The translations under genes and the position numbers were made by a program. Positions 47,108-48,625 of a DNA stretch of 64,000 nucleotides are shown piece after piece; the stretch's first letter is position 1; each line of letters starts with the position of its first letter. Source of the DNA: Escherichia coli (GTDB lineage Bacteria > Pseudomonadota > Gammaproteobacteria > Enterobacterales > Enterobacteriaceae); assembly GCF_003019035.1 (NCBI RefSeq), contig NZ_CP027447.1; one strand, given 5' to 3'. The notes beneath the pieces are model-generated. The model was not told where the DNA came from, did not search any database, and saw nothing but the letters and a program-made list of their open reading frames with translations.

Positions 47108-48625
47108 ATGTCAGTAGTTTTTGCAGATGGATGAGCAAACGGTCAATCGCACGATAGCTGACTGCCTCCTGCAAATGCTGACGTGTGATAATGTCAGACT
47201 GATCAATATCAGCAATGGTTCGTGCAACTTTCAATAACCGCTGCCAGGCACGAATCGATAACCCCAGATGGATCAGCGTTTCTTCCAGCCACTGCGCATC
47301 TTCGCTCTCAAGCTTGCAGAATTGGCGTATTTCCGGATTATCCAGCCAGGCGTTCAGTTTATTCTGCCGCTTAAATTGGCGCTCTCTGGCGGCCATTACA
47401 CGTTGTTTAACGGTGGTGCTGTTTTCTCCCTGCACTACCGTTTTACTCAAAATGCCGGGGGCGGTAATGGGATCTCTAGTGAGAGATCGAAGCGGTCGAG
47501 AAAGGGCCCCGAGAGCCGGTTGAGATAACGTAATGTCTGTTCTGGTGTGCAGCGGTTATGGTTTCCCTGATAATGTCCGGTAGGGCTGGGATTCATCGCC
47601 GCGACAAGCTGGAAACGGGCTGGATAGGTTATTTTTGCTCGTGTGCGTGAAAGATGGATCTGCCCGGATTCAATCGGCTCTCGCAAGGCATCCAGTGTAC
47701 GCCGTTCAAATTCAGGTAGCTCATCAAGAAAAAGCACGCCGTTATGCGCCAGCGAAATTTCACCTGGCCCTGGAATTGCACCACCGCCCACCATCGCAGT
47801 TAACGACGCACTGTGATGAGGTGAGCGGAATGGGCGCTGCCGCCATTGTTTTTGTACTGATTCAGCATTTACCAGACTTAATATCGCAGCGCTCTCCAGT
47901 GCCTCTTCATTGCTTAAATCTGGCAACAGGCCATTAATACGGCTGGCGAGCATTGTTTTACCTGTTCCCGGCGGCCCAATCAGTAAAAGGTTGTGCCCGC
48001 CAGCGGCGGTAATTTCCAGTCCTCGCTTTCCTTGCTCCTGACCGACAACATCACTGAGATCATGTTGTAGCGCCCGGGATACTGCATCAGTTGGTTTCGG
48101 GCGTTCGAGAGCGTGCTTACCCTCCAGAAACGCACAGACAGCCTGCAGATGATCGGCTATCAGGCATCCTTCACCGTTAATTAGCCCCACTTCATCCTCG
48201 TTATCTTTCGCGACGATAATTTTTCTGCCCGACTTAATGGCTTCAGTTGCACTGGAGATTGCGCCGGGAACGCCACGCAGAGCGCCTGTAAGCGCCAGTT
48301 CTCCGACTAATTCATATTCATCTAACTTATTGGCTGTAAGCTGTTCTGAGGCTGCCAGCAACGCAATGGCGATAGGTAAATCATATCGTCCCCCTTCTTT
48401 TGGCAGATCGGCTGGAGCAAGGTTGATGGTGATTTTTTTCGCCGGATATTCATATCCGCTATTGATAATGGCGCTGCGCACGCGATCGCGAGCTTCTTTT
48501 ACCGTTGTTTCTGGTAAGCCCACCATCGTTAAGCCTGGTAGACCTTTACTGATATGTACCTCAACAGTGATTGGGGGCGCATTTACTCCCAGGGCTGCGC
48601 GGGTATGAACAATTGACAGTGACAT
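47106..48625 (-). pseudogene. comM: Mg-chelatase-like AAA+ ATPase ComM (YifB), split by a -1 frameshift in a homopolymer run
   Basis: Two adjacent ORFs, 47447..48655 (N-terminal AAA+ part, Walker A GPPGTGKT) and 47106..47450 (C-terminal part); frames join if the G5 run at 47457..47461 is G6, giving ...[16 protein letters not shown]...; true start probably the ATG at 48625 ([13 protein letters not shown]...). Confidence 0.7.

Follow-up and report, generated by a model that had tools for sequence, protein, structure and literature searches.

In Gram-negative species, transforming DNA undergoes branch migration driven by ComM, a hexameric helicase of the AAA+ type (bioRxiv 10.1101/147660; PMC11612176). 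Its ATP site is composed of residues from two subunits, with Walker A (218-225) and E302 provided by one subunit and R316 and R463 (the "arginine finger") by its neighbour (EMBO J 2024, PMC11612176). The proteins of the competent species V. cholerae, A. baylyi, and L. pneumophila (PDB 8rxd) belong to the same orthologous family and share the three-domain architecture encoded at the locus described here. The gene examined here differs in being interrupted and belongs to E. coli, a host in which natural transformation has not been demonstrated (PMC3330819). The E. coli gene comM (b3765) has been reported to be UV-induced and to be part of the Sxy/CRP-S regulon (PMC1635313), and thus it may not be entirely dispensable.

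Several pseudogenes offer a comparison. The comM gene of A. baumannii has likewise been lost in clinical lineages, through disruption by AbaR resistance islands; that loss by island insertion, which is proposed to be selected, differs from a one-base slippage without any inserted DNA (PMC11441513). In E. coli K-12, ilvG, a different gene from the same chromosomal neighbourhood, is a classic case of a lineage-specific pseudogene caused by a frameshift. A further case is the ST648-like yifB pseudogene (NZ_CP008697.1, FH07_RS00120), which is annotated by NCBI as "frameshifted" in strain ST648. It shows the same G6 to G5 contraction in the same tract, and its 392-aa and 114-aa products are identical to those described below. 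It differs from the present allele by four synonymous SNPs in the gene and by approximately 0.7% divergence over the shared 58 kb. A search of the literature on yifB/comM in E. coli and on ST648 pseudogenes found nothing specific to the yifB tract.

Interrupted yifB Gene

The sequence analysed, hereafter the window, is a stretch of 64,000 nucleotides of the E. coli chromosome around oriC. Based on annotated relatives, its gene order is pst-lpf-glmS-atp-mnmG-mioC-asnA-rbs-rrnC-hdfR-maoP-yifB-ilvLXGMEDA-ilvYC. The hdfR-maoP-yifB-ilvL synteny of E. coli is kept, and the relatives have yifB annotated at the corresponding place between maoP and ilvL. An earlier note, made from the sequence alone, had named the gene comM (yifB) and described it as split by the loss of a single base in a G/C homopolymer. 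Both points hold. The N-terminal and C-terminal parts score 892.9 and 221.9 bits, respectively, on the YifB family profile NF007365, the ComM structure 8rxd is matched with E=1e-141, and the tract has five G residues in place of the six found in the intact relative CFSAN061771. The features of the locus are listed in Table 1.

Table 1. Coordinates of the interrupted yifB/comM gene and its parts in the window.
Feature	Position	Strand	Remarks
yifB/comM pseudogene, entire former 506-codon coding region	47106..48625	-	1,520 nt now, 1,521 nt before
N-terminal ORF, 392 aa plus premature TGA (47447..47449)	47447..48625	-	keeps the ChlI/Lon-like N-domain and the AAA+ P-loop core with Walker A GPPGTGKT
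C-terminal remnant, 114 codons, -1 frame, TTG start	47106..47450	-	encodes the Mg_chelatase_C lid domain and Arg459
G5 run (C5 on the coding strand)	47457..47461	.	inside codons Pro389-Pro390-Gly391; G6 in intact genes; site of the one-base contraction

On the plus strand, the surroundings of the tract read ...AAAATGCC GGGGG CGGTAATGG..., with the run placed exactly as in Table 1. The true start of yifB is that of MSLSIV at 48625, and an in-frame ATG further upstream, at 48655, gives rise to the 402-aa ORF listed for this region. The N-terminal ORF ends in ...LPPPAF-TGA, that is, with two wrong residues followed by the stop after residue 392, and the TTG of the C-terminal ORF overlaps this stop by four bases (TTGA). 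Insertion of one G yields a single ORF, which had been estimated at roughly 506 aa and proved to be exactly that long; its product matches WP_000058979.1, which is the intact YifB of both CFSAN061771 and GF131, at 100% identity. This identity implies that the gene carries no other damage and that the event was recent. In one respect the earlier description needs correction: a one-base deletion shifts the remainder of the gene into the -1 (equivalently +2) frame with respect to the part before it, rather than into the +1 frame.

A single indel relative to intact orthologues, a premature stop, and homology that goes on in another frame were thus all found at this locus. Since the sequence state is read directly, a chance statistic is not applicable. 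As assembled, the yifB/comM gene of the window is a homopolymer frameshift pseudogene of an ordinary kind that is already annotated in relatives, and the whole interval (first row of Table 1) should be labelled as one frameshifted yifB pseudogene rather than as two genes.

Domain Organization and Expected Loss of Function

Membership in the YifB/ComM family (NCBIfam NF007365 / TIGR00368, "YifB family Mg chelatase-like AAA ATPase") was judged by the curated whole-protein cut-off of 530 bits for NF007365. The restored or intact protein reaches 1144.2 bits, and the N-terminal ORF alone is also above the cut-off; the N-terminal part covers profile positions 1-391 and the C-terminal part 394-506. 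The alignment of 8rxd with the restored protein extends over residues 1-493 (E=1.4e-141). In the intact homologue, Pfam places ChlI at residues 21-142, Mg_chelatase at 189-386, and Mg_chelatase_C at 400-492. All three domains are still encoded in the window; they are no longer found on one polypeptide, with Mg_chelatase_C lying in a different frame past the premature stop. The window gene thus belongs to the YifB/ComM family by descent but does not encode an intact protein of that family.

The reading frame breaks at residue 391, within the linker that connects the AAA+ core to the C-terminal lid domain, i.e., between Mg_chelatase and Mg_chelatase_C. L. pneumophila ComM does not conserve the Pro-Pro-Pro sequence of this linker. 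R459 of the E. coli protein (in the context LSIRAWQR) aligns with R463 of L. pneumophila ComM and sits in the detached C-terminal remnant. Because the ATPase core is thereby split from the domain that carries the trans-acting arginine, loss of function is expected, and the alignment with ComM suggests that the 392-aa product should fail to form complete catalytic sites.

Different ways in which the interrupted gene might still be expressed as an active enzyme were considered. Programmed ribosomal frameshifting was rejected, as the orthologues are single-frame and no X XXY YYZ heptamer is present at the site. Transcriptional slippage was also rejected, since a run of C5 is too short for slippage by RNA polymerase. 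A further proposal is that translation of both ORFs yields two pieces that together form an active enzyme. It would suit the position of the break exactly in the inter-domain linker, the complete Pfam domain encoded by the C-terminal ORF, and the four-base overlap of stop and start. On the other hand, when the sequence was read by eye, neither a Shine-Dalgarno-like sequence before the TTG nor a slippery heptamer was seen. Rescue by a two-piece enzyme, ribosomal frameshifting, or transcriptional slippage is thus unlikely.

Tract Length across E. coli Genomes

The earlier note had proposed comparing the run length across related genomes. The tract is G6 in CFSAN061771, K-12, and GF131 and G5 in the window and ST648, and G7 also occurs. 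For a broader view, exact-match searches with engineered queries of 71 to 73 nt centred on the tract were conducted against 5,426 complete RefSeq E. coli genomes, approximately 98% of which have G6. With window-type flanks, G5 was present in 37 of the 5,426 genomes (an ST648-like group), and G7 had no match among them. With K-12-type flanks, G5 was detected in 23-25 genomes, including O157:H7, O145, O10:H32, APEC O117:H42, and NCTC9038 strains, and G7 in 31 genomes that apparently represent one STEC clone. Altogether, an altered tract was found in at least 91 of the 5,426 complete genomes (1.7%) on at least eight backgrounds, corresponding to at least eight contractions and one expansion. In all ten frameshifted genomes that were sampled, yifB is annotated as "frameshifted".

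Of the 37 genomes, five were checked and match the ST648 haplotype in this region; seven score identically over the gene, and the base-by-base comparison covered strain ST648 and one further assembly. An identical 114-aa remnant occurs in two draft contigs, IS5 and DAKBRP010000011, both of the ST648 haplotype. The exact 392-aa truncated product was found in 1,801 blocks of a public protein/contig collection and in at least 1,000 contigs (NCBI, ENA, JGI, and Logan assemblies). The presence of G5 in 37 independently assembled genomes and of the truncated protein in 1,801 blocks indicates that this allele exists in nature and persists.

A SNP matrix of 2.47 kb placed G5 on at least seven distinct backgrounds, which marks the tract as a site of recurrent slippage. 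The G5 backgrounds in this matrix are the window/GF131, ST648, and K-12 types, 2013C-3264, O145, O157:H7, 13KWH46, and P15-385. Moreover, 13KWH46 with G5 and 2013C-3277 with G7 share an identical 2.47-kb haplotype, implying that the tract has changed in both directions on one background. Contraction at the yifB tract is thus not new, and the same kind of pseudogene has arisen repeatedly at the same run in other E. coli lineages.

In a separate observation, the ST648-type draft GCA_026346415.1 was found to have a second altered G run in yifB, this one going from G5 to G6 near the N-terminal end of the coding region, at the counterpart of window 48577. This change is either further decay of the pseudogene or an assembly error.

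The variation in tract length raises the question of whether the site is a reversible G5/G6/G7 switch of the ComM helicase. Three tract lengths in nature, together with the haplotype that carries both G5 and G7, would be compatible with such phase variation. Of the properties of a contingency locus, length polymorphism was found here; a long tract of the kind that gives high-rate, reversible switching within clones was not. Contingency-locus tracts are typically of eight or more bases, so a six-base tract is short, and the predominance of G6 among the complete genomes, with frameshifted states that are clonally fixed and not mixed, also speaks against a switch. The decay-like second tract change in an ST648-type draft and the silence of the literature weigh against both phase variation and a working two-piece enzyme, and taken as one explanation these are highly improbable. 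Equally doubtful is the broader idea that the G6 linker tract is a preferred, possibly selected on/off site of a branch-migration helicase, or that the TTGA-split gene still works. If the on/off reading were true, ST648 and the STEC clone would have switched yifB off (by G5 or G7) because its loss was advantageous.

Slippage or Sequencing Error

A G5 call in a single assembly might also result from a base-calling or assembly error at the homopolymer, in which case the strain would truly have G6 and an intact yifB. To estimate the frequency of such calls, G6 to G5 contractions were counted in two control runs, and four genomes of about 5,400 were found for atpB and four of about 5,400 for kup. 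The background of errors and rare mutations is thus approximately 0.07% per control G6 run, compared with approximately 0.45% for sporadic G5 at yifB on K-12-type flanks. This roughly sixfold difference suggests that most of the sporadic yifB calls are real. The excess itself may reflect either ordinary slippage whose products persist under weak selection or a site that is somewhat more mutable or favoured.

Some complete assemblies clearly do bear errors of this type. Two assemblies recur across the lists, with N3 contracted in both yifB and atpB and HB42 in both atpB and kup, and these two look error-prone, and the assemblies L023 and L025 show several split ilv genes. For the window, an error would also fit the identity of the remaining gene with the intact allele (as well as a recent mutation does), the G6 state of its closest genomes, GF131 and SCU-301, and the lack of a second genome with the window haplotype and G5 among those searched. 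Against this reading, no other coding indel relative to GF131 or ST648 was found in the window and no other CDS is disrupted; all other indels, including the homopolymer-associated ones, are intergenic or located in rRNA, and the majority also occur in one or the other of these two relatives. In view of these findings and the rarity of contraction in the control runs, an error in this assembly is unlikely. Genuine inactivation, a slippage-prone site, and sequencing error, as listed in the earlier note, were the right set of alternatives, which has now been narrowed by the fixed ST648-like allele, the recurrent length change, and the lack of any sign of general homopolymer errors in the window.

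Origin of the Contraction in the Window

Among complete genomes, the window is closest to GF131 (99.8% over 24 kb) and SCU-301, both of which have G6. Over 46-60 kb, one SNP and this single indel are all that separate the window from GF131; flanking SNPs relative to GF131 are found at 45370 and within 60-62 kb and 62-64 kb. In contrast, 398 SNPs separate the window from ST648 over 58 kb, including those at 47160, 47831, 47927, and 47975 that bracket the tract. Around the gene (2.47 kb), there are 0 SNPs relative to GF131 and 7 relative to ST648. A second genome with the window haplotype and G5 was found neither among the complete E. coli genomes nor among the distinct contigs carrying the exact truncated protein; this combination is thus known from one assembly.

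Inheritance from the ST648 clone was rejected on the basis of the differing flanking SNPs: the window lacks the ST648-specific SNPs on both sides of the tract, and G5 was therefore not inherited from that clone, barring a conversion patch of less than 671 bp. Transfer of such a short patch from an ST648-type donor, by recombination or gene conversion, or a G5 state ancestral to the window and ST648, would account for the identical allele state, and E. coli is mosaic in this region, with SNP density relative to GF131 shifting from approximately 0 to approximately 1% along the window. However, the absence of the nearest ST648-specific SNPs (47160 and 47831) would confine the patch to that length, the window is far nearer to the G6 strain GF131 than to ST648, and independent recurrence on at least six other backgrounds makes slippage the simpler account. 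Both variants of this explanation are extremely improbable. Judged from the haplotypes, the G5 of the window would be either a very recent slippage independent of ST648 or a base-calling error.

Between these two, a genuine and very recent G6 to G5 slippage that produced a frameshift pseudogene is the probable explanation, and the readings other than real slippage and error are improbable even when taken together. In the proposed mechanism, slippage of strands during replication would have removed one base (G6 to G5, or C6 to C5 on the coding strand) from the homopolymer specifying Pro-Pro-Gly within the core/lid linker of YifB/ComM. The resulting frameshift would add the two wrong residues and terminate translation at the TGA after residue 392. 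Detachment of the lid domain and Arg459 from the Walker A/B core would then leave a hexamer without complete ATPase sites, and the gene would become a pseudogene. Its loss may be neutral or tolerated because E. coli is not known to undergo natural transformation, the process that ComM serves.

Other Features of the Window

The ilvG gene (49216..50862, plus strand) is an intact ORF of 548 aa and is frameshifted in K-12 MG1655 and NCTC9038. Between ilvC and ppiC, at about 58046..63440, lies an insert of approximately 5.4 kb that is present in GF131 and absent from ST648; its five genes encode a GntR regulator, a sugar kinase, an RraA-family protein, a C-terminal-binding-protein-type dehydrogenase, and an MFS transporter. 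The operon for long polar fimbriae (lpf-O113) occupies about 4,000..10,500, and its usher gene lpfC appears uninterrupted, unlike that of GF131, which carries an ISEc31 insertion.

The longest G/C homopolymers in the window are a G7 at 29834..29840 in the ravA-kup intergenic region and a C7 at 61868..61874 in the MFS transporter gene of the insert, and both match GF131. In the 23S rRNA gene of rrnC, at about 42,903, CTCTTTTATGG versus CTCTTAATGG was observed; the window variant is found in neither GF131 nor ST648 and probably reflects variation between rrn operon copies. The density of SNPs relative to GF131 is approximately 1% in 22,000..28,000 (mnmG-oriC-asnA-viaA) and almost zero from yifB to ilvC (46,000..60,000), a mosaic that indicates recombination tracts near oriC.

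Implications

The yifB tract can serve as a convenient marker, as the ST648-like clone has G5 and one STEC clone has G7. It offers a modest illustration of how a short homopolymer can change repeatedly. The pseudogene itself carries little general biological weight, being another lineage-specific one in a gene that E. coli seems able to do without. That yifB has been lost repeatedly in successful clones is consistent with weak purifying selection on this homologue of the competence helicase in E. coli.
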